Below are positions 7,253-50,035 of a stretch of DNA of 64,000 nt, one piece after another. A model generated the notes under the pieces. The model saw only the letters and a program-made list of their open reading frames with translations, was not told the DNA's origin and ran no database searches. The first letter of the stretch is position 1. The number at the start of each line of letters is the position of its first letter. This stretch comes from a virus. Taxonomy: Duplodnaviria > Heunggongvirae > Uroviricota > Caudoviricetes. The position numbers and the translations under genes were made by a program. The DNA lies in the IMG/VR virus record IMGVR_UViG_3300042988_000374, positions 1 through 64,000 of that record; one strand, given 5' to 3'.

Positions 7253-7281
7253 CAACATACATTAACTAAGCAGTAAAGAAA

Positions 7282-8741: not shown

Positions 8742-8742
8742 A

Positions 8743-23234: not shown

Positions 23235-25016
23235 ATGTTTAAAATATTCAAACGATACTCGACCTATACGCTGGTAGTGGCACTATTCATTAGTGCTATC
23301 AGTGCTTATTACTCTATTGTCGGTTTAACCGCCATATTCGCGGCAGCAGTGGTACCAATTATCATCATGGGTGCCGCCTTAGAGTTAGGCAAGTTAGTTG
23401 CCGCAGTATGGCTCAAGCTAAATTGGGGTCGCGCACCTTTAACTTATAAGATGTACTTAGTACCAGCAGTTGCCTTCCTGATGGCACTTACATCAATGGG
23501 AATTTTTGGCTTCCTCAGCAAAGCACACTCTGACCAATCACTAGTAAGCGGTGATTCTATGGCTAAGATTGCTATCTATGATGAGAAGATTAAAATCTCC
23601 AAAGACAACATCGACATGAACCGCAAAGCGTTGAAGCAGATGGACGAGGGCGTCGATCAGTTGATGGGTCGTAGTACTGATGAGAACGGTGCTGCTAAAG
23701 CTGTTGCCATTCGCAAGTCCCAGCAAAAAGAACGCAGCCGTATGCTCTCCGAAATTGAAGCAGAGCAGAAAAAGATTACTGCACTCAATGAAGAACGCGC
23801 ACCACTAGCCGCAGAGAATCGCAAGATTGAAGCAGAGGTTGGCCCAATTCGGTATATCGCTGCTCTTATCTATGATGACACCACTGATAGTAACGTCCTA
23901 GAGAAGGCAGTGCGCTTCGTAATCATTATGATTGTTGCCGTGTTCGACCCACTCGCACTCGTACTCATTCTAGCTGCCCAACAAAGTATGCGCTGGGAGC
24001 GTGAAGAGGAAGAGGCGCATGAAGCTGAACTTGAACAAGACGTTGAAGAATTCTTTGATCGAGCAAAGCAACATGCCAGACAACTAGATGAGGAGTTAGC
24101 TGTAATCGCCGAGGCAAATGCTAAGTTGGCAGAGATTGAGCATGAACCAGCTGATGTAATTATTCCTGAACCAGAACGCGACCTAGCTGCTGAAGCGAAT
24201 GCGCTCTTAGCTGAGATTGAGCCAGAGGTACCAGAAGTCATCTTGCCAGTATCAGAAGTCGAAGATACTCGCTCCTTGGCAGAACAGCATCCGTATCTAG
24301 AGCGTCCGTTTGTTCACTTTGAGAACACTCAGCCAATGGTAGCTACCAAGCCAGAGAATGAACCACTGATTAAGCCATTAGAGGGCGAAGCTGCATTTAA
24401 ATTGATGCAGGACATCGGCATCTTTACACCAGATGGTAAACTTGCGTATGAGTACGGTGGTGAGGAACCAGAAGTAACTGAAGCACGTGGTGAAGTCATT
24501 GATGAACCAAAGATTCTAACACTCGGTGTTGATAGTGTTGAACGACCTGGTGACTATGTTACTCCGCCAACAGTTGATAGCACCGTTACTATTGATTCTG
24601 AACCAGACATTCAAACTGCTAATGTGACAGTTGAACGTGTAATGTACTCACCAAATACGCAAGGGTATGTTAATATCGAGGGCAAGCAAACTAGCATCGA
24701 GAGTTTAAAGACTTCGCATCCGCATTTAATTATGCCAGCAGATGGTAAAGTGGAAAACAAGTTTAACTTTGGTGATAAATTCCCACCAGAGGCTCTAATT
24801 GGTGACTTGTATATGCGCACTGATGCTCGACCACACCGTTTGTTTAAATTCAATGGCGCAGAATGGATTCATGTCAATAAAGAAATGAATACTTCCTATC
24901 TACAATCATCTGGGTACGTTAAGTTCTTAATCTCCGCGCTAGATAGCAACACCTATTTGCCAGAAATGCTAACTGATGATGAGAGTGATGAGATTCGAGC
25001 ACAGCTAGACGAATAA
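23235..25016 (+). CDS. large membrane-anchored coiled-coil protein
   Basis: N-terminal TM helices; long Glu/Ala-rich coiled coil. Confidence 0.5.
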   Translation: MFKIFKRYSTYTLVVALFISAISAYYSIVGLTAIFAAAVVPIIIMGAALELGKLVAAVWLKLNWGRAPLTYKMYLVPAVAFLMALTSMGIFGFLSKAHSDQSLVSGDSMAKIAIYDEKIKISKDNIDMNRKALKQMDEGVDQLMGRSTDENGAAKAVAIRKSQQKERSRMLSEIEAEQKKITALNEERAPLAAENRKIEAEVGPIRYIAALIYDDTTDSNVLEKAVRFVIIMIVAVFDPLALVLILAAQQSMRWEREEEEAHEAELEQDVEEFFDRAKQHARQLDEELAVIAEANAKLAEIEHEPADVIIPEPERDLAAEANALLAEIEPEVPEVILPVSEVEDTRSLAEQHPYLERPFVHFENTQPMVATKPENEPLIKPLEGEAAFKLMQDIGIFTPDGKLAYEYGGEEPEVTEARGEVIDEPKILTLGVDSVERPGDYVTPPTVDSTVTIDSEPDIQTANVTVERVMYSPNTQGYVNIEGKQTSIESLKTSHPHLIMPADGKVENKFNFGDKFPPEALIGDLYMRTDARPHRLFKFNGAEWIHVNKEMNTSYLQSSGYVKFLISALDSNTYLPEMLTDDESDEIRAQLDE

Positions 25017-25046: not shown

Positions 25047-25097
25047 ACCGATATCGATTGCTGGTAATCTCGTAATCGAAAGTTGTTGTATCAGGAT
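25034..25097 (+). repeat. 12-bp inverted repeat atcctgatacaa / ttgtatcaggat bracketing the tandem promoters
   Basis: 25034-25045 and 25086-25097 are perfect reverse complements. Confidence 0.5.
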
Positions 25098-25126
25098 TTG
25101 ACTTTTGGAAATATACCTGATACAAT
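25098..25126 (+). promoter_or_regulatory. sigma70 promoter (TTGACT-N17-TGaTACAAT), second of the tandem pair
   Basis: TTGACT 25098-25103, TACAAT 25121-25126. Confidence 0.6.
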
Positions 25127-25157
25127 ACCTACATTGTTTAACAAAAGGATCGTTATC

Positions 25158-25835
25158 ATGAAATTTACAAAACTCGCAATCGTTGCCTTGGCACTCACCC
25201 TGCCTGCCTGCTCCTCAATGAAATCCAATCATGGTGTTGATGCACCAGCAGTCACGGCTATTGGTAATCAAAAGCTGACTTCAAACTTCAAGCGCCGTGG
25301 CATCAAGCTCGAATTTGATTGCGGCGCTGTCTCTTCATTCACATCTGGTTGCAACCGTGCAGAGCCTACTGCGATTGAAGTTACCGCGTATGCGCCTTCG
25401 TATGGCAATTCGGAGTCAAACCGTGAGACTGCCTTCCATGTTGCCGAAATGAATGCCAAGGCAAAACTTCGCCGCTTTATCCAAGAAGACATTCATACAT
25501 CTTCAGTTACCAACACTATCTCTAAGAACATTGAGAAGGCCAATGACAAGATCAAACAGCGTATCAATGACGGGCAAGAAGTCTCCATGAACGAAGAAGA
25601 AGCCAAGGAGTTCAACAAAGACTCCAACATGGCAGAGCGTGAGAACGCCAATCATGTCACTCGTACTGTCACCGAAACGGTTCGCATGAATGCTTCTGGC
25701 ATCTTGAAGGGCGTTCAAGTTATCGATGAAGCTGTGGTTGATCGTCAGACAGTGCAAGTTACCATTCGCTGGGACAAAAACAGCGAGGCAGCTTCTGCTT
25801 ACTTCGCCGGCAAATTCCGTCAACAGTCACGCTAA
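25158..25835 (+). CDS. lipoprotein
   Basis: RBS AAGGA; signal + lipobox LTLPACSS. Confidence 0.55.
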   Translation: MKFTKLAIVALALTLPACSSMKSNHGVDAPAVTAIGNQKLTSNFKRRGIKLEFDCGAVSSFTSGCNRAEPTAIEVTAYAPSYGNSESNRETAFHVAEMNAKAKLRRFIQEDIHTSSVTNTISKNIEKANDKIKQRINDGQEVSMNEEEAKEFNKDSNMAERENANHVTRTVTETVRMNASGILKGVQVIDEAVVDRQTVQVTIRWDKNSEAASAYFAGKFRQQSR

Positions 25836-25859: not shown

Positions 25860-26951
25860 ATGAAACAGTTAATCATCGCATTGTGTTTGTTTGCCTCTTC
25901 TGTAGTGAGCGCACAAACAACTGATCCCGTATCGGCAGTTAGTATTGCATTAACAGTTGGTGGATGGATCACCAAGGACAGCAAAAAAGTCTACTACGTG
26001 CGTGTTGAATCTACTGGTGATGACATTGAAAGTGCTCGTCATGGTGGATTCCGTAAAGCAGTTGAGTTGGCAGTAGGCACCCTTGTACTTGGTGAGTCGG
26101 AATCTGACGGCAAGCGCATGTTGCGGAATGACGTAGTTACCTATAGCAGCGGTTACGTTGAAGACTTCAAAGTAATCAGTAATGGTCCAGTTGGCAACAA
26201 GACACGTGTTGTGATGGACGTGTGGGTCAGTGATAGCAAGATTGCCAATCGTTTGAGCAGCATGGGACAGAGTACTGGTGCCGCCGTCAATGGTGCTGCC
26301 ATCAAGCGCGACTATGAGATTGATGCCGCACGTGCCGCTACTGAAGAAACTCGTCGCCGCAATGGCATGACTGTCACTGATATGGTACTTGCCGACTATC
26401 CGCGCCGTGCCACAAAAACAGCTGTGACTAAGACTTGGGTGGGTCGCAACAAAGAAGGCGCAGTCATCTTCAATATTGAAACTGTTACTGAGTTCACGCA
26501 GGAATATCTTGAAGCAGCAGCTGAAGTCCTCACACAAACTCGTCAGGGCTCTTCGAGTAGCCAACGCTATCCAACTGGTGTAAAAGTCTATACAGGCGTC
26601 TTTGGAAACACAAAAGGTTATTACGTAAACTCATCAGTTAAAGACAAGTGGGAAATCGCACTGTCCAAAGAAGTAAAGATGCGTATTGTTTATACCGATA
26701 CGACACCACATGTACTGTGCTACAGCGCTACGAAGCATGTGAATGGCATTCTGACTGGCTATGAACCACGTCTTGATGGTTACACTGGTCACAACATGGA
26801 TACTTTTGTTGTTGATAACAAGCGAGTAAACACGGTGTATGGCATTCACAGCAATCCTGCTAAGACGCCAACAGAAGCACAATTTGTAGATTGGCTGTCA
26901 AAAATCACTAAAGTGGAAGCACAACTGGTTGACGCGGACAAGTGTAAATAG
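25860..26951 (+). CDS. secreted protein
   Basis: RBS GGAGG; signal peptide MKQLIIALCLFASSVVSAQ; one of the few TAG stops. Confidence 0.55.
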   Translation: MKQLIIALCLFASSVVSAQTTDPVSAVSIALTVGGWITKDSKKVYYVRVESTGDDIESARHGGFRKAVELAVGTLVLGESESDGKRMLRNDVVTYSSGYVEDFKVISNGPVGNKTRVVMDVWVSDSKIANRLSSMGQSTGAAVNGAAIKRDYEIDAARAATEETRRRNGMTVTDMVLADYPRRATKTAVTKTWVGRNKEGAVIFNIETVTEFTQEYLEAAAEVLTQTRQGSSSSQRYPTGVKVYTGVFGNTKGYYVNSSVKDKWEIALSKEVKMRIVYTDTTPHVLCYSATKHVNGILTGYEPRLDGYTGHNMDTFVVDNKRVNTVYGIHSNPAKTPTEAQFVDWLSKITKVEAQLVDADKCK

Positions 26952-26963: not shown

Positions 26964-28175
26964 ATGAAGACAAACAACATGACACCAAAACATTGCGACT
27001 TTTGCGGTAAAGCAAAATCAGAAGTTAAAAAATTAATCGTCAGTGAGAACACTGCCATCTGTGATGGGTGTATTGAGTTGTGCACCGAGTTACTTAAAGA
27101 TGAGCCAGTTGCAGATGAAGTCGCCAGCAAGTCACTTTATCCAGACGACATCAAAGCGTTTTTGGATCAGTATGTTATTGGTCAGGATCAGGCAAAGAAA
27201 ACGTTTGCCGTTGCTGTTGCCAATCACTATAAGCGCATCAACAATAAGTCAGACAACTTGACTGTACAAAAAGCAAACGTGCTGGTACTTGGTCCCACTG
27301 GTAGTGGCAAAACACTGTTGGCAAAAACAGTTGCTAAGTATTTGGATGTGCCGTTCGTAGTTGCTGATGCTACTTCACTAACAGAGGCCGGTTATGTGGG
27401 CGACGATGTTGAATCTATGATTGTTCGCCTATTAGCAGCCGCCGATGGTGATATTGAGAGGGCACAGCGCGGTATTATCTGCATTGATGAAATTGATAAG
27501 ATTGCCCGTAAATCAGAGTCAACTTCGATTACCCGTGATGTATCTGGTGAAGGTGTACAACAGGCCTTGCTCAAACTTGTAGAGGGTACACACTGTCGTA
27601 TCCCTCAGAGTGGTCGCCGTAAGAACCCTGGTTCGGATATGCTTGAAGTAGATACCACAGATATCCTGTTTATTGCTGGCGGTGCTTTTGTGGGTATCGA
27701 AGACATTATTGCTCGTCGTGAAGATGGACACGGTATCGGCTTCAATTCAAAATTGAAGGACAAGGAAAAGCAAAAAGAGGAGTACATGGCCAAGTTGACG
27801 CCGGATGATCTGACGGCATTCGGTATGATTCCTGAGTTTACTGGCCGATTTACTACCCGTGTTCACATTACTGAATTGAGTAAAGAACAACTTGTTCAAA
27901 TCCTGACTGATGTTAAAAATTCATATATTCAGCAGTATGTTTACTTGCTAGGCTTAGACAACATCGAACTTGAATTTACGGCGGATGCTATTGATAGGAT
28001 TGCCGAGAACTGCTTGACTATGAAGACAGGTGCCCGCGGACTACATAGTGAGATAGAACGGGTGTTGCTCGATCATATGTACAGTGTACAGGCCTATCGT
28101 AATGCTGGTATTGACAGAATCGTTATTACAAAAGAACTGGTAGATCACCCGGAACTACTGGTAAAATCAGCATGA
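26964..28175 (+). CDS. clpX: ATP-dependent Clp protease ATP-binding subunit ClpX
   Basis: N-terminal C4 zinc finger CDFCGK...CDGC; Walker [14 protein letters not shown]; overall ClpX layout. Confidence 0.9.
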
Positions 28176-28915
28176 GTGATTCCAAAAACATAGATCATAT
28201 GAGAGATATTTGTTCTCTTACCAGACAAGTTCTGGATTATATTACACCGTTTGTAGTTGCTGGTGTGACTACAAATAGATTGAATGATCTATGCGAAGAA
28301 TATACAAAATCATTAGGAGCAGAGTCAGCGCCACTCAATTATCATGGATTCCCAAAATCCATATGTACCAGTATCAATCATGTGATATGTCATGGTATTC
28401 CAGATGATCGACAGCTCAAAGATGGTCACATTGTGAACATAGATGTTACCTTAAAAAAACAATACGACGGTATATATCATTTTGGTGATAGTAGTAGAAT
28501 GTTCTTGATTGGTACAGTCAAACAGCGTCACAAGTACTTATGTGAAATCACCCAACGATGCTTAGACGAAGCCATTAAAATTGTCAAGCCTGGTCAAAAA
28601 TTTAGTGAGATTGGGCGCATCATCGAAACTATCGCAAGACAATCAGGATTCAGTGTGGTGAGAGAGTATTGTGGTCATGGTATCGGTACGGAATTCCATA
28701 TGGAGCCACAAATCCTCCACTATGTAAATGATTTACCGGATATCATGGAAGAAGGTATGACATTTACCATTGAGCCGATGCTGAATGAAGGTGGCGCGAC
28801 AACAGTTCTGTTGGAAGATGGTTGGACAGTGATTACAAAAGATAAAAAGAAGTCGGCGCAGTACGAACACACGGTGCTGGTTACTGGTGATGGTTACGAA
28901 GTGCTGACAGCGTAA
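28172..28915 (+). CDS. map: methionine aminopeptidase type I
   Basis: HGIPDDRQLKDGHIVNIDVT and EYCGHGIGTEFHMEPQILHY metal-ligand motifs. Confidence 0.8.
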   Translation: MSDSKNIDHMRDICSLTRQVLDYITPFVVAGVTTNRLNDLCEEYTKSLGAESAPLNYHGFPKSICTSINHVICHGIPDDRQLKDGHIVNIDVTLKKQYDGIYHFGDSSRMFLIGTVKQRHKYLCEITQRCLDEAIKIVKPGQKFSEIGRIIETIARQSGFSVVREYCGHGIGTEFHMEPQILHYVNDLPDIMEEGMTFTIEPMLNEGGATTVLLEDGWTVITKDKKKSAQYEHTVLVTGDGYEVLTA

Positions 28916-29014
28916 GTAAAATAGTAGTATATTTAGAATTTATCGAAAGATAAATAAATTTGTAGATGCTTCGGGTCTACAATAAAATCTTGCTTAAATT
29001 TAAGGAGAAACAAC

Positions 29015-30901
29015 ATGAGCAAAAACAACCCAATAGGTATCGACCTTGGTACCACAAATTCATGCGTAGCCGTTATCGAAAACGGTCAAGTCAAAGTAAT
29101 CGAAAACAGTGAGGGCGCACGAACCACACCTAGTATCGTAGCATACACACCAGACGAAATCTTAGTTGGCGCATCAGCCAAACGACAGTCAGTCACAAAC
29201 CCCAAAAACACTATCTATGCCTCTAAGCGCTTAATTGGACGCAAGTTCAAAGAAGACGCAGTACAGAAGGACATCGACTTAATGCCATACACAATCATGG
29301 AAGCAAAGAATGGTGACGCATGGGTAAAGGCACAAGACAAGGAACTGGCACCGCCACAAATCAGCGCAGAAGTGCTCCGTAAGATGAAGCAAACTGCTGA
29401 AGATTATCTTGGCACAACAGTTACTCAAGCAGTCATCACTGTACCAGCATACTTTAATGACTCACAGCGACAGGCGACCCGCGATGCTGGTAAAATCGCT
29501 GGGCTGGAAGTACTCCGTATTATCAACGAGCCAACTGCCGCGGCACTGGCATATGGTGTTGATAAAGCTACTAAAGGTGATCGCAAAGTTGCAGTCTACG
29601 ATTTGGGAGGTGGAACTTTTGACGTGTCAATTATTGAAATTGCAAACGTTGATGATGATAAACAAATCGAAGTTCTAAGTACAAACGGTGACACCTTCTT
29701 GGGTGGTGAAGACTTCGACCAGCGTATCATGGACTTCCTCATTGCTGAGTTCAAGAAAGAATCTGGTGTAGACTTATCTAAGGATGTTCTGGCACTTCAA
29801 CGTCTCAAAGAAGCCTCTGAAAAGGCAAAGATTGAATTGTCGTCTTCACAACAAACAGATGTGAACCTACCATACGTCACAGCAGATGCTAGTGGTCCTA
29901 AGCATTTGAATGTTAAGTTGACTCGTGCTAAGTTTGAATCACTGGTAGATGAATTAATTGAGCGGTCATTGGCACCATGCCGCACGGCTATGAAGGATGC
30001 TGGTGTTAGCGCTAGTGACATCGACGAAGTTATCTTGGTAGGCGGTATGACCCGTATGCCACGTGTACAAGACGCTGTTGAAAAATTGTTTGGTAAAGCA
30101 CCACGTAAAGATGTTAACCCAGATGAATGTGTTGCTGGTGGCGCCGCTATTCAAGGTTCCGTGTTAGCTGGTGATCGCACCGACGTTCTATTACTTGATG
30201 TTACTCCACTATCACTTGGTATCGAAACCATGGGCGGTGTATTCAGCAAGATGATTGAAAAGAACACCACGATTCCTACTAAGAAGTCGCAAACATTCAG
30301 TACAGCTGAAGACAACCAAGACGCGGTTGATATCAAAGTGGCACAAGGTGAGCGTGAATTATTCAAGTACAACAAGTCACTCGGTGAATTCAAACTTGAT
30401 GGCATCGCGCCTGCTCGTCGTGGTCAGCCACAGATTGAAGTTACGTTTGACATCGACAGTAACGGAATTATGAAGATCAGCGCAACTGATAAAGGTACTG
30501 GTAAAGCAAACAACATTACCATCAAATCAGATTCTGGTCTAACTGATGCTGAGATCGAACAAATGGTAAAAGATGCAGAATTGAATGCTGAAGCTGATAA
30601 GAAGCAACGCGCACTCATTGAAGCTCGTAATCAGGCAGAAGGCGCACTGGCAAACTTAAAGCGTGATGCCTCTCAAGAAACTATCTCTGATGAAGACCGT
30701 GCCAACTATGATGACGCTGTTGCGAACTTAGAGCAAGCTATGGCAGGTGAAGACGCAGATGCCATTCACAAGGCCCTTGAAAAGGCGCTTGAAGCCGCGG
30801 CACCTATCTATGCTGAAATCAACAAAAAAGCAACTGCTGAAGCTGAAGCCGCTGATAAAGCAGAAGATAGCGTAGTAGACGCTGATGTTAAGGAGGTGTA
30901 A
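29015..30901 (+). CDS. dnaK: Hsp70 chaperone DnaK
   Basis: [36 protein letters not shown] signatures; RBS AAGGAGA. Confidence 0.95.
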
Positions 30902-30902
30902 T

Positions 30903-31340
30903 ATGTCAGGTCGTACATTAACTCTACGTAGTTTAGATATCCCATCAATCAATCGCTTTGGCATTGGCTTTGATGGTATGGTATCTGAACTGATGCGCAT
31001 GACTGAGGCACAGACTACCAATTATCCACCATACAATATTGGTAAGATGAATGAGAATGAATTTGTCATTGAATTGGCGGTAGCTGGCTTTGCCGAGGGC
31101 GAAGTGACTATCTCCCAAGAGCGCCGAATCTTGACCATCTCTGGTACACGACCAATGAACGAAACTGAGTATCTACACAAGGGTATCTCTGATCGGTCAT
31201 TCACTCGTGACTTTACACTGGCAGAACACGTTGAGGTTGAAGGTGCCTCTCAGAAGAATGGCATCTTGACAATCAATCTAAAACGCATTGTGCCAGAAGA
31301 TGATGCTCCAAAGTCGATTGACATCACATTCACAAAGTGA
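30903..31340 (+). CDS. small heat-shock protein (Hsp20/IbpA-like)
   Basis: alpha-crystallin domain layout (FVIELAVAGFAEGEVTISQERRILTISG...GILTINL); RBS AAGGAGG. Confidence 0.75.
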   Translation: MSGRTLTLRSLDIPSINRFGIGFDGMVSELMRMTEAQTTNYPPYNIGKMNENEFVIELAVAGFAEGEVTISQERRILTISGTRPMNETEYLHKGISDRSFTRDFTLAEHVEVEGASQKNGILTINLKRIVPEDDAPKSIDITFTK

Positions 31341-31374
31341 TATCATTCATCTCTAACAACAAATAGGAATCCAA

Positions 31375-31671
31375 ATGGCTGATACAAAAGTCTCGATTAA
31401 ACCAAACTTAAAATTACAAGAACCAAAGATGTACAAAGTCATCTTTAAAAACGATGACAGAACAACAATGGAATTTGTAATCGAAAGTTTGATATCACAC
31501 TTTAATTATGAAATTCAGGCAGCGTTAGTACTGACACAGCAGATTCAAGACGAAGGTAGTGCTGTTGTTGCAGTATTACCATATGAATTAGCTGAGCAAA
31601 AGGCAAACGAAGTTATGCTAGATGCCAAGAGTCAAGGATTCCCATTAGTAGTAAAATTCGAATCTGAATAA
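31375..31671 (+). CDS. clpS: ClpS N-degron adaptor
   Basis: YKVIFKNDDRTTMEFVIESL... matches the ClpS core (YkViLhNDDyTpMeFVv). Confidence 0.8.
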   Translation: MADTKVSIKPNLKLQEPKMYKVIFKNDDRTTMEFVIESLISHFNYEIQAALVLTQQIQDEGSAVVAVLPYELAEQKANEVMLDAKSQGFPLVVKFESE

Positions 31672-31690
31672 GAATTCGAGGAGACAAAAG

Positions 31691-31718
31691 AAAGGGACCT
31701 TCGGGTCCCTATTCTTTT
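31691..31718. terminator. bidirectional rho-independent terminator
   Basis: gggacc-ttcg-ggtccc flanked by A-run upstream and T-run downstream; between convergent clpS and the KAPA-repeat gene. Confidence 0.7.
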
Positions 31719-31732
31719 GATGCAATCTTAGA

Positions 31733-32029
31733 TTACTTTGGAGCTTTGATGCCAGCTGGCTTCTTAGCTTTTGGCTTAGCAGGTGCCTTGGCCTTTGCTG
31801 GTGCTTTGGCTTTAGCAGGTGCCTTGGCTTTAGCTGGTGCTTTAGCTTTTGGTGCTGCCTTTGCTGGTGCTTTAGCTTTTGGTGCCACTACTGGTTGAGC
31901 GTTAACAACTTCAACTTTAGTAGGTGCTTCAACTTTGTATGGTGCAGCGTTAGCTTCGACAACAGACTTTTTGCGTGTTACTAACACAACGATACAAGCG
32001 ATGGCAATTAAGCCGATGATGATTTCCAT
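31733..32029 (-). CDS. membrane-anchored Ala/Lys/Pro repeat protein (histone H1/TolA-like low complexity)
   Basis: N-terminal TM MEIIIGLIAIACIVVLV then (AKAPAK)n repeats; RBS AAGGAGA before ATG at 32029. Confidence 0.5.
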   Translation of the reverse strand: MEIIIGLIAIACIVVLVTRKKSVVEANAAPYKVEAPTKVEVVNAQPVVAPKAKAPAKAAPKAKAPAKAKAPAKAKAPAKAKAPAKPKAKKPAGIKAPK

Positions 32030-32110
32030 ATTGATCTCCTTAAGGTTTATGAAATACAATTTATTTATAGTGGTATACACCAATAAAAAAGTTTTGTTGC
32101 TCCAAAAATG

Positions 32111-32139
32111 TTGAAGTGTGTTTGCTGGTGATATACAAT
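32111..32139 (+). promoter_or_regulatory. sigma70-like promoter (TTGAAG-N17-TACAAT)
   Basis: TTGAAG 32111-32116, TACAAT 32134-32139. Confidence 0.45.
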
Positions 32140-32162
32140 TTACATATCAACAAGGATATCTT

Positions 32163-32789
32163 ATGGCAAGAAACGATAGTGATTTAGACAAACTCTCTGG
32201 CGGTAGTGCTTCACTTACCGACAGTGGTATGTACGTGTTCATGGACTCAGTAGAGCCTGACACTATTGCTCCTATCATCGAGTGGATTCTTGAACAAAAT
32301 TATGTCGTGCCAGTTGCCGAACGCAAGCAGGAATTATTGCTTATGATTTGCAGTGAGGGTGGTGAATTAGCAGCAGCGTTTGCACTCATTGATGTAATGC
32401 GGTCGAGTAGTATCCCAATTAAAACAGTAGGACTTGGACAGATCGCGTCGAGTGGTTTATTAATCTTTATGACTGGCACAAAAGGACGACGAGTGCTAAC
32501 ACCAAATACCAGCATCTTGTCCCATCAGTTTAGCTGGGCAAATGAAGGCAAGTCATCTGAGCTATTTGCAACTGTTAAAGAATATGACTTAACCCAGCGC
32601 CGAATGATTAACCATTATAAAAGCTGTACTGGTTTAAATGACGCAAAGATTAAAGAGTTCTTACTGCCGCCACAAGATATCTGGTTAGATGCCAACGAAG
32701 CGCTGAAGCTGGGAATCTGTGACAGCATTGCTTATCCTAATCAACCCCAATCCCAAAAATCAACCACAAAGAAAGTGAAGACAAAATGA
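32163..32789 (+). CDS. ClpP-family serine peptidase, divergent paralog (ClpP1/ClpP2-type partner)
   Basis: Ser motif GQIASSG, His in LSHQF, Asp in PQDIWLDANEALKLGICD; S14 fold layout. Confidence 0.65.
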   Translation: MARNDSDLDKLSGGSASLTDSGMYVFMDSVEPDTIAPIIEWILEQNYVVPVAERKQELLLMICSEGGELAAAFALIDVMRSSSIPIKTVGLGQIASSGLLIFMTGTKGRRVLTPNTSILSHQFSWANEGKSSELFATVKEYDLTQRRMINHYKSCTGLNDAKIKEFLLPPQDIWLDANEALKLGICDSIAYPNQPQSQKSTTKKVKTK

Positions 32790-33029
32790 GTTCAAATGAT
32801 GTCTCAAATTCAGAGTTACCAGCAAATGAACGACTAAAACGCTTGACTGAACAGGCAGAATTATGGGCAATTAAAACAACAGTGATAGCTGGACGATGAA
32901 AGAATTAATAGAGCGCATTCGCGCGGCTTTGAAGGCATTCAATGAAGATAAGTGACATCGAACAATATTTACCGTATTATCGGAAATCAACCCGTCAATT
33001 CTTGACGAAAACTTAAAAGGAAAACAAAA

Positions 33030-33650
33030 ATGGGCCTAATTCCAATGGTAGTCGAGCAAACCTCTAAAGGTGAACGTAGCTTTGACATCTTCTCCCGTCT
33101 ACTTAAAGACCGTGTAGTCTTTATCAACGGACCAATTAGCACAGAGATGAGCCACGTTATCATCGCGCAGTTGCTATTCTTAGAGGCAGAGAATCCAGAC
33201 AAGGATATCAGTCTATATATCAATTCACCAGGTGGCGAAGTAAGCGCTGGTCTATCAATCTATGACACCATGCAGTTCATCAAGTGTGATGTGTCTACTA
33301 TGGTAGCCGGTCAAGCATGTTCTATGGGTTCATTCTTGGCACAAGCAGGCGCTGCTGGTAAACGATTCGTTCTACCACAGTCACGCACAATGATTCACCG
33401 TGTTAGTTCTGGTACTCCAGGTACTCGCGGTAGTGTTCACGTACAAGAATTGCAATTCGAAGATGCCAAGCGCTCATTCGAAGAATCTCAGCGAGTTAAC
33501 GAAGTACTCACACGGTTATATGTTAAGCACAACACTGCTGGTAAAACATATGACGAGATGTTTAATGCCATGAAGTTCGATACATTCCTGTCTGCTGAAG
33601 AAGCAGTTCAGTATGGTCTCGCAGATCGAGTGATTGAAAAGCGAGAGTAA
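33030..33650 (+). CDS. clpP: ATP-dependent Clp protease proteolytic subunit ClpP
   Basis: GQACSMGS (Ser), MIHRVS (His), [18 protein letters not shown] (Asp); canonical ClpP. Confidence 0.85.
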
Positions 33651-33651
33651 C

Positions 33652-33858
33652 ATGAACGCACATCACTTCTGGCTCATGTTAGCTACTTGTATTACTATGT
33701 CAATCGTTGTTGGTGTAGTCTGGGGTATCTATGCAGCCAGTTGGGTTGTCGGCATCTCAGCATGGATCATCACCGAGTGTGCGCTCTTGGCACTCTTGCT
33801 TCGCCATGCGCTCCATGCTGAGCGTCCTGAAGCAATTGACAATGAACCAAAATCCTGA
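33652..33858 (+). CDS. small membrane protein
   Basis: two TM helices. Confidence 0.4.
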   Translation: MNAHHFWLMLATCITMSIVVGVVWGIYAASWVVGISAWIITECALLALLLRHALHAERPEAIDNEPKS

Positions 33859-33893
33859 TATACTAACCACATATTAGATTCTAGGACACACTG

Positions 33894-34202
33894 ATGAGTT
33901 CATTGCAAGATATCACGGCCATCATTTATGACAAGCGCGGCAAAGTATTGGCTATTGGTAAAAATAGCTATTTGAAAACTCATCCGTACCAGGCAAAGAT
34001 GGCACATAAATGTGGTATGCCAGAGAAACAATATCTGCATGCCGAGATCAGCGCTATCATCAAATGCCGTGACTTGACTAAAGCTCATCGTATCCTCGTA
34101 ACACGACTAAATAAGCACGGTGAGCCAGCACTGGCAAAACCGTGCCCAGTATGCCAATCAGCGATTGATGCATCTGGTATTAAGTACGTGGAACACACAT
34201 GA
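33894..34202 (+). CDS. minimal cytidine/deoxycytidylate-deaminase-fold protein
   Basis: HAEISAI (H-x-E) and PCPVCQ (PCxxC) zinc-ligand motifs in only 102 aa. Confidence 0.5.
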   Translation: MSSLQDITAIIYDKRGKVLAIGKNSYLKTHPYQAKMAHKCGMPEKQYLHAEISAIIKCRDLTKAHRILVTRLNKHGEPALAKPCPVCQSAIDASGIKYVEHT

Positions 34203-34435
34203 GCAACATTAAAGATTACTTCGAACGAACTGCATATATGGCAACTTATCAAATTGGTGACCGAGTTCAAGGCAACTACGGCAAGATTCCTATCCGAGGC
34301 ACTGTTGGTAACGACAGTTGTCCAGATGGTGTTAATCCTCGAATCTCTGTGCATTTGGATTTACCAATCATGGAGAATGGTGTTGTCAAAAACATCTTGT
34401 TCTTGACCCATAAACAAATCAAACCACTCAAATAA
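34199..34435 (+). CDS. hypothetical protein
   Basis: ATGA overlap. Confidence 0.4.
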   Translation: MSNIKDYFERTAYMATYQIGDRVQGNYGKIPIRGTVGNDSCPDGVNPRISVHLDLPIMENGVVKNILFLTHKQIKPLK

Positions 34436-34445
34436 GGAGCTCACT

Positions 34446-34631
34446 ATGGAAAACGTTAATGAATACGCCATGACGCCAGCAGACATTGAAAAATGGCGCA
34501 GCGCATGGGATGGTAAATGGGAGAGTATCCCAGAATCCGTTCACAGATATGTAATTGCTGTAGAAAGACAGAATTTAAAAATTCTAACGGATCTTTGTGA
34601 TGCCATTGATATAGATTTGGGTCGGAAATGA
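34446..34631 (+). CDS. hypothetical protein
   Basis: RBS AAGGAG. Confidence 0.4.
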   Translation: MENVNEYAMTPADIEKWRSAWDGKWESIPESVHRYVIAVERQNLKILTDLCDAIDIDLGRK

Positions 34632-34915
34632 AGATTATTGAGTTACTTGAGTCACAATTTAATCACGAGGTATTTAATACAACTTCTGGACAGATTGCGA
34701 AATTACATAAATTATCCAACGATTTCGATTCTTGGGTATCTGCTATTGGATTTGAACACGCCTCCTCTAAATTAGAAGCCGAGTTAAGCAAGATAAAAAG
34801 TATGGATTGGTATAATGATGTAGGAGTGAATACTAATTTAAAATTGGAAATTCAGAGAAAGAATCGTGACGCTATGATATCCGCGTTAGAACTTAGAATG
34901 AAAGCAGGACTATAA
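34628..34915 (+). CDS. hypothetical protein
   Basis: ATGA overlap. Confidence 0.4.
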   Translation: MKIIELLESQFNHEVFNTTSGQIAKLHKLSNDFDSWVSAIGFEHASSKLEAELSKIKSMDWYNDVGVNTNLKLEIQRKNRDAMISALELRMKAGL

Positions 34916-34916
34916 A

Positions 34917-35291
34917 ATGGACAATGACTTACTCGCACTCTTGGTACTCATCGTACTATTAGTTAAACACTATGTAGTTGACTTCCCACTACAAGTTGAA
35001 TATCAATGGAAGAATAAGGGCACGTTTGGTCATCCAGGTGGACTAATTCATGCCGGTTCACACGGTCTTGGCACAATGATTGTTCTTGGCATGGTATTTG
35101 GCGTAGGCTACTGGGTATTTGCATTTGTCATGGGTGTGTTTGATGCCGTTACCCACTACTTTATTGATTATGCAAAAATGAATTATGGTTGCCGTGATAT
35201 CGAGAATCCAAAGTTTTGGAATCATCTTGGTCTAGATCAACTGGCACATCAAATGGTCTATATTATCATTGCTGGAGTATGTGTAGTATGA
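34917..35291 (+). CDS. membrane protein
   Basis: 3-4 TM helices. Confidence 0.45.
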   Translation: MDNDLLALLVLIVLLVKHYVVDFPLQVEYQWKNKGTFGHPGGLIHAGSHGLGTMIVLGMVFGVGYWVFAFVMGVFDAVTHYFIDYAKMNYGCRDIENPKFWNHLGLDQLAHQMVYIIIAGVCVV

Positions 35292-35452
35292 AATGCTGTA
35301 ACGGTGATTGCCGACAAGGACGTGATTGTCCCATTCAAACTCGTGTTGAATTAGCGAATCGATTGTCCAAATTAGTGTATTCGAATCCAAACTTCTTGTA
35401 TACTGTATCCTACTTGGCGCTTGTTGTTACTGGCGCAAGTCTAATTCTTTAA
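35288..35452 (+). CDS. small Cys-rich membrane protein
   Basis: ATGA overlap; MKCCNGDCRQGRDC. Confidence 0.35.
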   Translation: MKCCNGDCRQGRDCPIQTRVELANRLSKLVYSNPNFLYTVSYLALVVTGASLIL

Positions 35453-35462
35453 AGGAAAATAT

Positions 35463-36146
35463 ATGTTTATCACTCTTGATCGAACTGCAAGCGACATTAA
35501 CTCTGCAATGGCGCGTGTCTTTGGACACATGGGAATCGCAACTCTCTTTAGTATGATGACTGCTTTTGTTGTTGGCACTTCGCCTACAGCTATGGCAGTG
35601 GTCTCTCAGGGCTGGGTGCAAATTGCACTGTTTATCTCTGTACTAGCTTGTGCATTTGTAATCCCAGTTATGATTGGTGCTGGTATTGGTGCACTTGGCG
35701 CAGCAGCTTTACTATACGCTTTTGCTTCACTCATGGGATTGATGACCAGTAGCATCTTTGTCATGTTCAGTATGAGTAGTATCTTTACTGCGTTTATGGG
35801 AGCATCAGTGCTATTTGGTACCATGGCTTTTGTTGGTTACTTTACTAAACGCGACTTGAGTGATCTTGGTGCACTCTTATTTGTGGCACTCATTGCGATT
35901 ATTATTGCGTCCATTATCAACATCTTTATTGGTAGTACCTTGATGCAAATGGTGATTAGTGCGATTGCAATCTTGGTGTTCCTTGGATTCACCGCGTATG
36001 ATACTCAGACTATCCGTGAATCACTCATGGACGGTGACAGCTATGAGATTGAAATCCTTGGTGCGTTAAACTTGTACCTAGACTTTATGAACTTGTTTGT
36101 AAACTTGCTACAAATCATTGGTGTGGCACCAGGGTCGGACGATTAA
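35463..36146 (+). CDS. Bax-inhibitor-1 / YccA family 7-TM protein (FtsH modulator family)
   Basis: 7 predicted TM helices in 227 aa; C-terminal LNLYLDFMNLFVNLLQIIG matches the BI-1/YccA terminal motif. Confidence 0.6.
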   Translation: MFITLDRTASDINSAMARVFGHMGIATLFSMMTAFVVGTSPTAMAVVSQGWVQIALFISVLACAFVIPVMIGAGIGALGAAALLYAFASLMGLMTSSIFVMFSMSSIFTAFMGASVLFGTMAFVGYFTKRDLSDLGALLFVALIAIIIASIINIFIGSTLMQMVISAIAILVFLGFTAYDTQTIRESLMDGDSYEIEILGALNLYLDFMNLFVNLLQIIGVAPGSDD

Positions 36147-43558: not shown

Positions 43559-43730
43559 TACCGTCAGATATGGTGAACTTGACGAGCCTCTAGAGTGGTG
43601 TCAAGAGCACTGTGTTGGAGCATGGGATCTCGTGAACGTCATTGATCAAGCTGGTTATGCTAATGGCACATATCAGTTCGAATTTAGTGACGAGCGAGAC
43701 ATTACTTTATTCACTCTTCGCTGGGCCTAA
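43530..43730 (+). CDS. array paralog 1 (WC-x-E-N-x-G / LF[LT]LRW family); start uncertain
   Basis: EWCQEHCVGAWD core, ends ITLFTLRWA; the only in-frame start is the TTG coinciding with the promoter -35. Confidence 0.4.
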   Translation: MTDNSNTVTITVRYGELDEPLEWCQEHCVGAWDLVNVIDQAGYANGTYQFEFSDERDITLFTLRWA

Positions 43731-43731
43731 T

Positions 43732-43929
43732 ATGTTTGAATGCACTTTTGATAAAGGCCAGTATCATCTGGTAAACGAAATGGTTCGTTGGTGCAAAGAT
43801 AACATTGGTGATGGTGGATGGTTAGCACGAAACGGTGACTTGTGGTCATGTGAAGGTGTATTCGGGCGCACCACATTCAAGTTTATGCGAGAGGATGACT
43901 ACACTCTATTCTTGTTGAGGTGGTCATGA
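43732..43929 (+). CDS. array paralog 2
   Basis: RWCKDNIGDGGW core; ends YTLFLLRWS; TGA then ATGA coupling. Confidence 0.6.
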   Translation: MFECTFDKGQYHLVNEMVRWCKDNIGDGGWLARNGDLWSCEGVFGRTTFKFMREDDYTLFLLRWS

Positions 43930-44195
43930 CTGTGATACAATACACGAATCGAATTATTATTGATGAAATGCCAGTTGAATCAGATGGTAATACACTATGG
44001 CATAAGGTCGCTATATTTACTGGCGTAACAAGGTCGGCGGTGGCGCAAAGAGGATTCAACAGTTCTGGTGACGCTATTGTTGCAATGAAGCAATGGTGCA
44101 GTGAAAATACCAACCATAAATGGAGTTCATATATCACTGTGTTTTACTTTGAAGACGAACTTGATGCAACTTTATTTACCTTGAGGTGGTCATGA
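43926..44195 (+). CDS. array paralog 3
   Basis: QWCSENTNHKW; ends ATLFTLRWS; ATGA overlap. Confidence 0.6.
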   Translation: MTVIQYTNRIIIDEMPVESDGNTLWHKVAIFTGVTRSAVAQRGFNSSGDAIVAMKQWCSENTNHKWSSYITVFYFEDELDATLFTLRWS

Positions 44196-44458
44196 TAGAT
44201 CCAAAAACTGATATAATATCGAGCAATGGGTTTAGATTCCGTGTTAATATCAAGACCACTGATGAAGTCGAGCAGTACATCAAAGACCACTGGACCACCG
44301 TGGCACTGCCAATGAATGAATTCACTGACTCTGGGTTTAGATATCGAATCATCTTTTGGATAGACGAACACGCAACTGGCAAGTGGACTAGACTTCGAAA
44401 TACTTTTTACTTTGAAAAGGAAGTTGACTCCACTCTCTTTATCTTGACACACTTATGA
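44192..44458 (+). CDS. array paralog 4 (divergent C-terminus LFILTHL)
   Basis: ATGA overlaps both sides. Confidence 0.55.
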   Translation: MIDPKTDIISSNGFRFRVNIKTTDEVEQYIKDHWTTVALPMNEFTDSGFRYRIIFWIDEHATGKWTRLRNTFYFEKEVDSTLFILTHL

Positions 44459-44772
44459 AAATTGTATGGAATCGGAGCTTAGGCTGGAATATGGAGTTCA
44501 ACAAAATGGTAAGAAAATCACGATCAGTATCAGGAGTAAGACCCGTGAATGAAATGATTATCGAAGACGGTGCTGACTGCTATCCATGGACGGAATGCTT
44601 TATCTGGTGGCCGGTTAAGACTGTCACTGGGCAACGCATCTGGTGGATAAAGGCATTCAAGCGTCGAGTATGGATCATGTGGGGCGGCGGATATCACATG
44701 GAGCCCGAGACACAATTTGCAACGGCGTTTGATTTATTGGTGTATAATCCAAAGGTAATGGGGCGAGAATGA
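44455..44772 (+). CDS. array position 5: unrelated Trp-rich insert gene
   Basis: ATGA coupled but lacks family motifs. Confidence 0.5.
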   Translation: MKIVWNRSLGWNMEFNKMVRKSRSVSGVRPVNEMIIEDGADCYPWTECFIWWPVKTVTGQRIWWIKAFKRRVWIMWGGGYHMEPETQFATAFDLLVYNPKVMGRE

Positions 44773-45149
44773 ACTTCAAAGAATGGTTAATCGACATCGA
44801 GTCTGAGACTGGTGGCTACAAGCAAGGCGATTTGATTGTCGCCTATGGGAGAGGAACAGGAAAGAGTATCATGAATTCATATGCAGATCAATGGTTCACT
44901 ACTATGGCCGAGAGAAAGATTGAAATCACTCATGGTGAATTAGTTGGTAAACAAAAATTCAAGTACTGGGTCAAAGTAAATGGACCGTGGGGTCTTGAGC
45001 GCCAAATTAATGAGTGGTGTTCGGAGACTTATGGCGCGCTTGACACACCTGGCTACAATAACCCACGCTGGGACAACAGGCGGAAGTTTGGTGTGTACAA
45101 CTTCAAACACGAAGCTGATGTTACATTATTCTTATTGAGGTGGGCATGA
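44769..45149 (+). CDS. array paralog 6
   Basis: EWCSETYGALD; ends VTLFLLRWA. Confidence 0.6.
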   Translation: MNFKEWLIDIESETGGYKQGDLIVAYGRGTGKSIMNSYADQWFTTMAERKIEITHGELVGKQKFKYWVKVNGPWGLERQINEWCSETYGALDTPGYNNPRWDNRRKFGVYNFKHEADVTLFLLRWA

Positions 45150-45391
45150 AACATTTAACATTCGATATCGCAGAAGAGCGGGCACCAGAAGTTACTAAAT
45201 GGTGCCGAGGCGCGTTTGGTAAGTCTAAACAAAATGATACGCGAATTAGCAAGATTCTTTGGTGGCGCAGAAAGATGAACACTTATGACTGCTCCCCAGA
45301 TTTTAGTAGGAACATCCATGTCAAACACATTGTCAGATTTTACTTCAAGCGTGAAGCCGACTACACCCTATTTTTACTGAGGTGGGCATGA
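45146..45391 (+). CDS. array paralog 7
   Basis: KWCRGAFGKS; ends YTLFLLRWA. Confidence 0.6.
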   Translation: MKHLTFDIAEERAPEVTKWCRGAFGKSKQNDTRISKILWWRRKMNTYDCSPDFSRNIHVKHIVRFYFKREADYTLFLLRWA

Positions 45392-45624
45392 AAGTAAACA
45401 TGTTTAATCATTGGTTCAAGTACAAGGTGCCTATTGACGACCACATTGAACAAATCAAGGTCGCCATCTTCAATGATGACTATCACATCAGATATAGCAA
45501 TCTCTGGCACTGGCTCAATGAACGCCATGATGTTGGTCAGTATTACAACTGGCGAGAAAGCAGAAACTACTTGTGCTTCAACCACGAGAGCGCCTACTTA
45601 ATATTTTTATTGAAGATATCATGA
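45388..45624 (+). CDS. array paralog 8 (C-terminus LIFLLKIS)
   Basis: ATGA overlaps. Confidence 0.55.
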   Translation: MKVNMFNHWFKYKVPIDDHIEQIKVAIFNDDYHIRYSNLWHWLNERHDVGQYYNWRESRNYLCFNHESAYLIFLLKIS

Positions 45625-46055
45625 AGAGTATATTCACACGATTGCGGGCTAAGTTTGATCGCTTTTTACACCAGCGATATCTTGAGAAGATGGGTTTGAC
45701 AGAGGAAGCATATCAACGTAAGACAGACTCACTGGTTAACTACCGAGCACTGACTGTCAGTAGCTTTTATCATGGGTACAAGGCAGTACACACATTCCAA
45801 GATGCTGGCACGGCGCCATGGAGTATGTTTGACGATTGGCTTTCAGGTCTACATAGTATACGCGAATGGTGCGAGGAGAATTGCAGCGGTAAATGGCGAG
45901 ACGATATTCATCGAGTAATTAAACAGACATCAATCGGCGTGAATGGTGAGACTGAAGAACACTTGTTTATGAACGAGATAGGTGGTCGAGACGTGGTATG
46001 CTTTGCATTTGAGAATGACGCAGACTACTTGTTATTTTTATTGAGGTGGGCATGA
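45621..46055 (+). CDS. array paralog 9
   Basis: EWCEENCSGKW; ends YLLFLLRWA. Confidence 0.6.
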   Translation: MKSIFTRLRAKFDRFLHQRYLEKMGLTEEAYQRKTDSLVNYRALTVSSFYHGYKAVHTFQDAGTAPWSMFDDWLSGLHSIREWCEENCSGKWRDDIHRVIKQTSIGVNGETEEHLFMNEIGGRDVVCFAFENDADYLLFLLRWA

Positions 46056-46252
46056 AGCAAACACATGCAAAATATAAACGATTCAAGTATGTGGTAGAGT
46101 GTAAACGCACCGCTGACTGGTGGTCTGGTGGCTGGCGTGAACGCAGTGAATGGTGCGTGGAGAATATTGGCACTGACTGGGATTACTTTGACGAGTGCTT
46201 CACGTTTAAAGATTCAGCTAGTGCGACACTCTTTATTTTAAGGTGGAAATGA
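46052..46252 (+). CDS. array paralog 10
   Basis: EWCVENIGTDWD; ends ATLFILRWK. Confidence 0.6.
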   Translation: MKQTHAKYKRFKYVVECKRTADWWSGGWRERSEWCVENIGTDWDYFDECFTFKDSASATLFILRWK

Positions 46253-47916: not shown

Positions 47917-47917
47917 C

Positions 47918-50010: not shown

Positions 50011-50035
50011 GTATTACGCAGTTGATACATTCTTC

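Follow-up and report, generated by a model that had tools for sequence, protein, structure and literature searches.

Two conserved gene modules form a putative proteostasis island in an uncultured large phage

Introduction

Genes for Clp proteins and heat shock proteins have been listed in jumbo phages before: Atu_ph07 carries seven scattered Clp-family genes together with DnaJ and Hsp20, AP-J-162 carries six, and Iyer et al. described ClpP, ClpS, ClpA, ClpX, Hsp20 and DnaJ in jumbo phages, suggesting roles in host targeting and in assembly. Moraphages, which are large aquatic phages of Bacteroidota, encode DnaK, DnaJ and Hsp20, and a 2026 review of jumbo phage biology mentions neither Clp proteins nor chaperones. 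These earlier listings neither organised the genes into modules nor tested them. Here we analyse a stretch of 64,000 nucleotides (nt), positions 1-64,000 of the IMG/VR record IMGVR_UViG_3300042988_000374 (Caudoviricetes), which we refer to throughout as the window. A cluster of genes whose core spans positions 26964-36146 of this window encodes the unfoldase ClpX, a methionine aminopeptidase (Map), DnaK, a small heat shock protein (sHSP), the adaptor ClpS, two ClpP-family proteins and a membrane protein of the BI-1 family. We think it probable that this cluster serves an uncultured large phage as a proteostasis island and that it was put together from two modules shared by a big clade of uncultured, often jumbo, phages, with a proposed role as a phage-made ClpXP protease and chaperone system.

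Atu_ph07, AP-J-162 and Phosso resemble the window in encoding ClpX, ClpP, a second 'Clp protease-like' protein, ClpS and Hsp20, and Phosso has homologues of the window's ClpP paralogue and canonical ClpP that are 50% and 57% identical, respectively. In the Atu_ph07-like phages, however, these genes are scattered over 470-490 kb, ClpA, ClpB and DnaJ are present, and there is no DnaK, whereas the window has a single 9-kb block that includes DnaK and, within its 64 kb, no ClpA, ClpB or DnaJ; the comparison is one of genes alone. The moraphages are likewise large uncultured aquatic phages with Hsp70 and Hsp20, but they form a separate lineage in which DnaK groups with that of Flavobacteriaceae and is accompanied by DnaJ, and the paper describing them mentions neither a DnaK-sHSP-ClpS cassette nor ClpP or ClpX.

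An earlier note on this DNA, made by a model from the letters alone, had called such a set of genes unusual for a phage, a judgement that proves half right. Phage-borne Clp and chaperone genes as such are known, scattered in jumbo phages, and hundreds of IMG/VR contigs carry the DnaK cassette. What is new is the conserved modular organisation, together with a ClpP paralogue restricted to phages: our literature search, which is weak evidence given that most subscription journals lay outside it, turned up no earlier account of either a DnaK-sHSP-ClpS cassette or a phage ClpP paralogue encoded as one of a pair.

Results and discussion

Two recurring modules make up the island

Families were assigned with Pfam and PHROG, and with the stricter curated NCBIfam models, which carry equivalog cut-offs; the Pfam cut-offs for CLP_protease (PF00574) and ClpS are 20.2 and 23 bits. 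The nine genes singled out by the earlier note lie at the positions it gave, each matches its Pfam family, and all the island open reading frames (ORFs) are on the plus strand:

26964-28175, plus strand: ClpX unfoldase (Pfam AAA_2, 106 bits; zf-C4_ClpX, 50 bits)
28172-28915, plus strand: type I methionine aminopeptidase, Map (Pfam M24, 164 bits)
29015-30901, plus strand: full-length DnaK (Hsp70) (Pfam HSP70, 837 bits over the full profile)
30903-31340 (ORF opens at 30885), plus strand: IbpA-like sHSP (Pfam HSP20, 64 bits; phrog_432, 134 bits)
31375-31671, plus strand: ClpS adaptor (Pfam ClpS, 76.1 bits)
32118-32789 (GTG start at 32118; alternative ATG at 32163), plus strand: ClpP paralogue (Pfam CLP_protease, 92 bits, profile positions 37-179 only)
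33030-33650, plus strand: canonical ClpP, phage 'type B' (Pfam CLP_protease, 210 bits, full length)
35463-36146, plus strand: BI-1/TMBIM membrane protein (Pfam Bax1-I, 153 bits; no PHROG family)
16243-17094, plus strand: SPFH/Band_7 protein (Pfam Band_7, 108 bits; phrog_200, 187 bits)

The island consists of two modules, one formed by DnaK, sHSP and ClpS, with or without ClpX upstream, and the other by the ClpP paralogue and the canonical ClpP. At least 599 IMG/VR stretches match the window's DnaK, and our counts for the DnaK neighbourhood are based on the best 80 of these loci, which are 74-94% identical to it. In 69 of the 80 the sHSP gene lies directly downstream of DnaK, and ClpS follows sHSP in 66; ClpX is found directly upstream in 30, and a ClpP within 10 kb in 20. 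The paralogue, for its part, has about 400 IMG/VR relatives at 57-88% identity, of which 80 loci were fetched for neighbourhood counts. Sequence reaching at least 6 kb downstream is available for 65 of these, and in 60 of the 65 the paralogue is followed, on the same strand and 40-5000 nt away, by a canonical ClpP.

The order lipoprotein, secreted protein, ClpX, DnaK, sHSP, ClpS, paralogue, ClpP is shared by the window and three relatives, L003, L004 and L005 (numbers preceded by L denote fetched IMG/VR loci). The wider clade has the order lipoprotein, secreted protein, paralogue, a gene for a protein of about 530 amino acids (aa), and ClpP, with the DnaK cassette elsewhere; on one 236-kb contig, to which both L073 and L157 belong, the two modules sit about 20 kb apart. 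Since an identical gene order recurs in related viral contigs, the clustering is not a matter of chance, and the modules are recurrent in a clade of uncultured, often jumbo, phages. Measured on gene pairs between the window and L003, the island genes have nonsynonymous divergence (dN) of 0.07-0.30, with synonymous divergence (dS) at or beyond saturation and dN/dS ratios of 0.07-0.18 where these could be computed, values which indicate that all members of the island are under purifying selection.

The ClpX-to-ClpS block is closed by one further feature, identified as a pattern match only:

31693-31710: terminator-like site, a GC-rich hairpin with T-runs after it on each of the two strands

The region shows no enrichment of such sites (11 against 9.7 expected from shuffles) or of promoter-like sites (31 against 26 in shuffles), so that an operon structure is suggested here only as far as gene order and overlaps go.

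ClpX and the canonical ClpP retain the parts of an ATP-dependent protease

The phage ClpX lies above the equivalog cut-offs of two NCBIfam models (NF003745, 534.6 against 359; TIGR00382, 505.1 against 370.75). When aligned to solved ClpX structures, it has the C4 zinc-finger cysteines, the Walker A and B motifs, the GYVG pore loop and the sensor-II arginine (GARGL), all of which are conserved across 31 phage ClpX sequences. The loop that docks onto ClpP reads GIGFN in the window, and contains IGF in 30 of the 31 phage sequences and MGF in the remaining one; its retention throughout argues for the existence of a ClpP partner. At the RKH loop, the window and four relatives have RKN, while most other phage copies have RKH. 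The RKH loop, a feature of the enterobacterial type with a link to tag recognition, does not define the family. The window's ClpX is 88% identical to its counterparts in L003 and L005.

The canonical ClpP matches E. coli ClpP at 208 bits. The earlier note had reported intact Ser/His/Asp triads in both ClpP-family proteins, and this stands up to alignment: the motifs it quoted are present and fall on Ser97, His122 and Asp171 when set against E. coli ClpP, and neither protein has lost a catalytic residue. The canonical protein has its triad in common with all 64 phage ClpPs compared. It retains the N-terminal gating motif (PMVVEQT..GERSFDI), and in the hydrophobic pocket Y62, F82 and L114 are invariant, with Ser at the position of Y60 in most phage copies. 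Its NCBIfam scores fall just below the cut-off for NF001368 (247.3 against 249) and further below that for TIGR00493 (229 against 308.6).

Across 64 loci the phage ClpPs fall into two types, an ordinary type A (41 loci) and a type B (23 loci) to which the window's protein belongs. In type B, HRV replaces HQP, some 10-12 aa are inserted after the handle strand, and Phe occupies the position of Arg170. The Glu/Arg pair that precedes the catalytic Asp (E169/R170) is the 'oligomerisation sensor' between rings; it reads Lys-Phe in the window, as in each of the 23 type B loci, and Glu or Asp followed by Arg in type A. Type B is also represented by gp272 of the cultured Pseudomonas phage PA5oct, which shares the HR motif, the handle insertion and the sequence KFDTF and is 61-62% identical. 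PA5oct differs in having no paralogue annotated in the 10.6 kb around clpP, none of the 43 phage records with a DnaK match is PA5oct-like, and the genome is otherwise distant (its DNA ligase is 28% identical).

The second ClpP-family protein is restricted to phages

Each of the 65 distinct paralogue sequences has the Ser-His-Asp triad. The paralogue lacks the N-terminal axial-loop motif, its Pfam match beginning only at profile position 37, and in the docking pocket it carries the replacements Y60L, Y62M, F82S, L114T and L189S/A. It scores below every NCBIfam ClpP cut-off (at best 83.5 against 228). An AlphaFold (AF2) model, with a mean predicted local distance difference test (pLDDT) value of 81, superimposes, long handle helix included, on solved bacterial and human ClpPs with template modelling (TM) scores of 0.76-0.79 and a root mean square deviation of about 1.8 Å (Foldseek, best PDB matches), and the best match by sequence to a solved protein is a chain named 'proteolytic subunit 2' (6x60). 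From the sequence and the model, then, the paralogue is predicted to be a ClpP-fold peptidase that should be unable to dock ClpX or ClpA by itself. Its translation may start at the ATG at 32163 rather than at the GTG at 32118.

By its distribution in the sequences searched, the paralogue appears to be restricted to phage contigs. A comparison set of 185,579 species genomes yielded it in only seven contigs, all from metagenome-assembled genomes (MAGs) and none from an isolate; these contigs belong to six unrelated lineages, which looks like the pattern expected of mis-binned phage DNA. For Clp biochemists the protein would offer a natural ClpP that lacks the docking surface and gating loops and keeps its active site.

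The DnaK-sHSP-ClpS cassette

DnaK lies above its NCBIfam equivalog cut-offs (953.9 against 648; 880.8 against 822.55) and its alignment with E. coli DnaK (817 bits) takes in residues 4-593, and with them the nucleotide-binding and substrate-binding domains and the lid. The sHSP falls below the equivalog cut-offs for IbpA and IbpB (114.8 against 212 and 104.7 against 207); the start at 30903 is likelier than that at 30885 because its relatives are 146 aa long.

ClpS shares its fold family with the E. coli adaptor, together with the pocket residues N34, D35 and T38 and the ClpA-contact residues E79, E82 and K84, and N34, D35, T38, E79 and E82 are invariant in an alignment of 60 phage ClpS sequences. 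The phage family thus looks built for binding both N-degrons and the N-domain of ClpA. Unlike the E. coli system, in which clpS and clpA form an operon, the window has no adjoining clpA, and its ClpS scores below all NCBIfam ClpS cut-offs (at best 67 against 143).

An AAA ATPase encoded at 7282-8400 was considered as a ClpA-like or FtsH-like partner and rejected: it has a generic AAA domain only and no NCBIfam match, and is 22% identical to the 'FtsH' of PA5oct over the Walker region.

Map, BI-1 and SPFH proteins are looser associates

Map is a genuine member of its family by score (TIGR00500, 292.5 against a cut-off of 171.35), and its five metal ligands (D, D, H, E, E) align with those of 4fo7, as does the substrate histidine with that of solved methionine aminopeptidases (MetAPs). 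No homologue was found in any of the 80 paralogue loci, and none lies between ClpX and DnaK in L003, L004 or L005; in L003 a different ORF of 177 aa occupies the position, and in L004 and L005 there is nothing. This distribution suggests that Map is an insertion specific to the window and a later accessory addition. MetAPs uncover the small residues G, A, S, T, C, P and V, and not the L, F, Y and W that are read by ClpS, and on this established specificity we reject the idea, put forward in the earlier note, that Map exposes N-degrons of the ClpS type.

The same note had proposed that the BI-1 and SPFH proteins modulate FtsH, as members of the YccA and HflKC families. Only the superfamily memberships, Bax1-I and Band_7, hold, since neither protein reaches the corresponding equivalog model: the BI-1 protein scores 30.1 against a cut-off of 353 for YccA, and the SPFH protein 33.3 against 159.4 for HflK. 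The BI-1 protein does align with B. subtilis YetJ and retains both aspartates of the YetJ pair. YetJ is a pH-sensitive Ca2+-leak channel, in which this aspartate pair acts as the pH sensor. To judge by the alignment, the phage protein looks like a generic TMBIM channel and not like YccA. A BI-1 homologue occurs in nine of the 80 DnaK loci, directly after ClpS in five of them, which suggests a patchy, later accessory addition to the island. The SPFH gene, which lies 10 kb upstream of the island and is near the cassette in one of the 80 DnaK loci, is loosely associated with it.

A proposed mechanism and its alternatives

Building on what is established, namely the gene identities, the intact catalytic and motor motifs, the conserved order, the purifying selection and the phage restriction of the paralogue, we propose a working mechanism for the island. 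The phage ClpX would dock through its IGF loops on the phage ClpP, which has kept its gating motif and hydrophobic pocket, to give a phage-made ClpXP. The paralogue would be a second active peptidase, unable to dock an ATPase alone, that forms either the distal ring of a mixed particle or a separate complex. The sHSP would hold misfolded proteins, and DnaK would refold them with the help of host DnaJ and GrpE, since neither is linked to the phage gene. ClpS would bind host ClpA and so alter the targets degraded by ClpAP. Together these activities would keep folding and turnover going while phage proteins are mass-produced, and would retune host proteolysis. The island could serve mass production, the retuning of proteolysis or counter-defence, purposes that the data do not separate.

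A number of observations weigh against this reading. The window contains, within its 64 kb, neither the ClpS partner ClpA nor the DnaK partners DnaJ and GrpE, so that these must be supplied by the host or encoded elsewhere in the phage genome. Pocket residue His66 of ClpS, which is His in 59 of the 60 phage sequences, is Gln in the window's copy only (H66Q), and this copy may bind N-degrons less well. In the window the paralogue and ClpP genes are 240 nt apart and do not overlap. A search for co-variation between the paralogue and the type of its partner ClpP found no discriminating column in the paralogue, which is 70% identical within partner types and 68% between them; because types A and B differ at the ring-ring interface (handle and Arg170), the missing co-variation is unlike what a tight ring-ring partnership would give. 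Lastly, 18 loci with ClpX, DnaK, sHSP, ClpS and ClpP have no paralogue within reach, and five paralogue loci have no ClpP within 10 kb.

The arrangement of the two genes nevertheless recalls the bacterial ClpP1P2 proteases of Mycobacterium, Listeria, Chlamydia and Pseudomonas aeruginosa, which also have adjacent paralogues, both with intact triads and one with ATPase-docking features. The known bacterial ClpPs of this kind that lack the features needed for feeding by an unfoldase depend on a partner ring. The phage pair differs from them in that the paralogue matches no ClpP1 or ClpP2 model (its NCBIfam scores being far below cut-off), is confined to phages and shows no co-variation. Of the earlier claim of a heteromeric ClpP1P2 layout, what holds is that a two-ClpP arrangement with intact triads recurs; an obligate ClpP1P2 complex is weakened by the lack of co-variation with the partner type, and 'a complete self-encoded ClpXP1P2' is not supported. 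A mixed complex of paralogue and ClpP is plausible but unproven on these sequences, and we hold to it tentatively, as the less likely outcome.

It is also possible, although we think it doubtful, that the paralogue does not pair with the phage ClpP at all and acts alone, with host ClpP or with another partner, the adjacency of the genes being an inherited gene order. Besides the missing co-variation, this would suit the Synechococcus phage BUCT-ZZ01, which has a 52% identical homologue and no ClpP annotated in the 12.5 kb shown, as well as Phosso, in which the two genes sit about 85 kb apart, and the 54 loci in which a conserved opposite-strand gene of about 530 aa splits the pair. Set against it are the persistence of a same-strand ClpP downstream of the paralogue in all but five of the 65 loci across 57-88% divergence, the overlap of the paralogue stop with the ClpP start in the closest relatives (L003, L004 and L005), and the paralogue's lack of the features required for feeding by an unfoldase.

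A different purpose for the same machinery would be counter-defence, with the island mainly neutralising those host immune systems that work through proteolysis or chaperones. ClpS would then block the degradation of labile antitoxins or sensors by ClpAP, the phage ClpXP would destroy defence proteins, and the phage DnaK would replace or titrate host sensing that depends on Hsp70 and DnaJ. The lineage-specific, patchy additions around a conserved core (Map, BI-1 and RKN for RKH) do resemble arms-race genes, and the ClpA contacts E79 and E82 are kept in 60 of 60 phage ClpS sequences. The moraphage paper raises counter-defence for phage heat shock proteins, citing DnaJ-dependent sensing of phage, and Iyer et al. 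argue that the patchy phage ClpP and ClpS target host proteins. The core is nonetheless highly conserved (74-94% identity for DnaK, with a dN/dS of 0.07), which fits housekeeping-like chaperone work better than a fast arms race, and no defence or anti-defence gene was identified beside the island, although a dedicated PADLOC scan was not made. On this evidence we consider counter-defence unlikely as the main purpose.

It is distinctly unlikely that one or both ClpP-family proteins serve as a head maturation (prohead) protease, as the automatic annotation of PA5oct-like phages states. The best PHROG match of both is phrog_94, 'head maturation protease' (84 bits for the paralogue and 145 bits for ClpP), the RefSeq copies from PA5oct and Atu_ph07 label their ClpP in this way, and the PA5oct ClpP record bears an electrospray ionisation tandem mass spectrometry (ESI-MS/MS) note. 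That note, however, is also found on the DNA ligase and MazG of the same phage, and the prohead protease of PA5oct is a different, T4-like protein, gp152, encoded next to the portal and the major head protein, which implies that ClpP is not the head protease there. BUCT-ZZ01, which has a paralogue homologue, belongs to the Kyanoviridae, which are T4-like cyanophages. Scores against the head protease model NF045542 (50.7 for the paralogue and 81.2 for ClpP, cut-off 120) are lower than those against the ClpP models for both proteins, and no portal, scaffold or capsid gene adjoins them in the window or is among the conserved neighbour families of the 80 loci. Moreover, the canonical ClpP has the full ATPase-docking apparatus, with a cognate ClpX encoded 5 kb upstream.

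The window is phage DNA

As the earlier note had assumed, the window is phage and not host chromosome, and the flanking context is that of a phage. Its coding density is 92.6% under the standard code, with largely small ORFs on the same strand, and its base composition is even along its length. PHROG matches include NadV (nicotinamide phosphoribosyltransferase), a nicotinamide mononucleotide (NMN) adenylyltransferase-Nudix protein, an ATP-dependent DNA ligase and homing endonucleases. The window is related to IMG/VR viral contigs that reach 383 kb in length, and rIIA and rIIB homologues adjoin the DnaK cassette in L102 and L120. When structural proteins of PA5oct were searched against all loci, matches were obtained for rIIA/rIIB (L102 and L120), a tail fibre (L132) and a YomR-like protein (L001 and L002), with none inside the window. 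The main gap in the phage assignment is that no clear structural gene was recognised within the 64 kb by Pfam or PHROG. For the 9-kb block there was no megablast match among 50,697 phage records, and near relatives thus appear to be absent from the deposited phage genomes searched.

The gene order likewise sets the island apart from bacterial operons, in which the usual orders are clpP-clpX, clpS-clpA and dnaK-dnaJ. No DnaJ or GrpE match was found in the window or within 10 kb of DnaK in any of 160 loci, which is unlike bacterial dnaK operons. It is scarcely credible that a stretch of bacterial chromosome, or a chimeric assembly, has here been mistaken for phage, for although the proteins belong to bacterial-type housekeeping families (ClpX, Map and DnaK exceeding NCBI bacterial equivalog cut-offs), structural genes were not recognised and the paralogue occurs in seven MAGs, the composition is uniform, the window is dense in small ORFs, homing endonucleases and PHROG families, the order ClpX-DnaK-sHSP-ClpS is not that of bacterial operons and comes without DnaJ and GrpE, the same order is found in viral contigs of up to 383 kb with rIIA/rIIB close by, and the MAG contigs come from unrelated lineages and no isolate.

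Implications for viral protein quality control

Returning to the proteostasis reading, the presence of the island core in hundreds of related uncultured phages suggests that these viruses see to part of their protein quality control themselves while in the host. The fixed DnaK-sHSP-ClpS cassette and the phage-only paired ClpP paralogue turn a list of auxiliary genes into defined, testable units, and raise the questions of whether large phages have a protein quality control of their own, what its substrates are, and whether there is a viral particle resembling ClpP1P2. In a bolder form, which we offer as a rather unlikely extension, the island would encode an asymmetric machine in which an ATPase-blind ring of the paralogue sits on a phage ClpP ring fed by ClpX, with ClpS capturing host ClpA; together they would replace the host's choice of substrates and remove host regulators or defence proteins, while DnaK and sHSP keep phage proteins soluble. 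If true, an asymmetric Clp machine of this kind would amount to virus-encoded regulated proteolysis in bacteria, comparable to the hijacking of the ubiquitin system by viruses in eukaryotes.

Neighbouring genes

Several genes flank the modules without belonging to a recognised chaperone or protease family:

23235-25016, plus strand: conserved membrane protein of 593 aa with a hydrophobic N-terminal region (no Pfam match; weak C-terminal match to phrog_11591)
25083-25835, plus strand: predicted lipoprotein with a lipobox-like N-terminus (no Pfam or PHROG match), found upstream of ClpX or of the paralogue
25860-26951, plus strand: signal-peptide protein (no family match), always paired with the lipoprotein
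31733-32083, minus strand: small Lys/Ala/Pro-rich protein (KAPAKAKAPAK..., APYKVEAP motif) with an N-terminal hydrophobic segment, just upstream of the paralogue

The 593-aa membrane protein is the commonest upstream neighbour of DnaK, with homologues in 62 of the 80 loci, and lipoprotein homologues occur in 27 of 80 paralogue loci and 23 of 80 DnaK loci. A 61% identical homologue of the Lys/Ala/Pro-rich protein is present in L004, and similar opposite-strand ORFs are found in L038 and L116. The spacer between the paralogue and ClpP genes (32790-33029) contains a pair of very short ORFs, about 37 and 19 codons long, and the first of these overlaps the paralogue stop.

The gene of about 530 aa that accompanies ClpP in the wider clade (product of 500-531 aa, beginning MRDLL..) adjoins ClpP in 54 of 80 loci, for example at these positions:

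L038, 10543-12126, minus strand: MRDLL.. protein
L116, 14384-15886, plus strand: MRDLL.. protein
L010, 10534-12135, minus strand: MRDLL.. protein

We considered it as a third module member and dropped it: neither Pfam nor PHROG has a family for it, the window lacks it, and it is unrelated to the 511-aa gene beside the paralogue in BUCT-ZZ01. In L116 a 181-aa protein with a zinc-peptidase-like HEMAHQH motif (13829-14374) is encoded upstream of the 500-aa gene and ClpP; this protein is found in loci that have ClpX, DnaK, sHSP, ClpS and ClpP and lack the ClpP paralogue. Between ClpS and the paralogue, L003, which is the closest relative, carries a metabolic insert of three genes (6298-9405, minus strand), absent from the window, for a beta-keto acid cleavage enzyme, a short-chain dehydrogenase and an AMP-binding enzyme.

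Other features of the window

A salvage pair for nicotinamide adenine dinucleotide (NAD+) is encoded at 283-1302 and 4409-5887, consisting of an NMN adenylyltransferase-Nudix fusion (phrog_395) and a nicotinamide phosphoribosyltransferase (phrog_448). Among the 101 ORFs scanned, further Pfam matches are to AhpC/TSA peroxiredoxin, CMD (AhpD-like), class II aldolase, dCMP deaminase, MazG, DUF4337, DUF7487 and WYL_2, which suggests additional auxiliary genes related to stress and nucleotide metabolism. Homing-endonuclease-like genes lie at 5888-6886 (minus strand; phrog_3339/5104) and 54417-55274 (minus strand; phrog_655), the latter interrupting a series of genes for which relatives show 84-92% identity. 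The largest ORF of the window (60089-62737, 882 aa) has no Pfam, PHROG or tblastn match, the last among the 50,697 phage records.

A tRNA with the anticodon CUA, of amber-suppressor type and called tRNA-Pyl by ARAGORN, is encoded at 53148-53222 on the minus strand. Among the stop codons of the 132 called ORFs, TAG is the rarest (13, against 68 TGA and 51 TAA); given the coding density reached under the standard code, wholesale recoding of TAG is not evident in the window. Finally, positions 43642-50641 on the plus strand are taken up by an array of small ORFs, mostly of 70-160 aa and many overlapping by about 10 nt, of which 11 form a single paralogous family by BLASTP.

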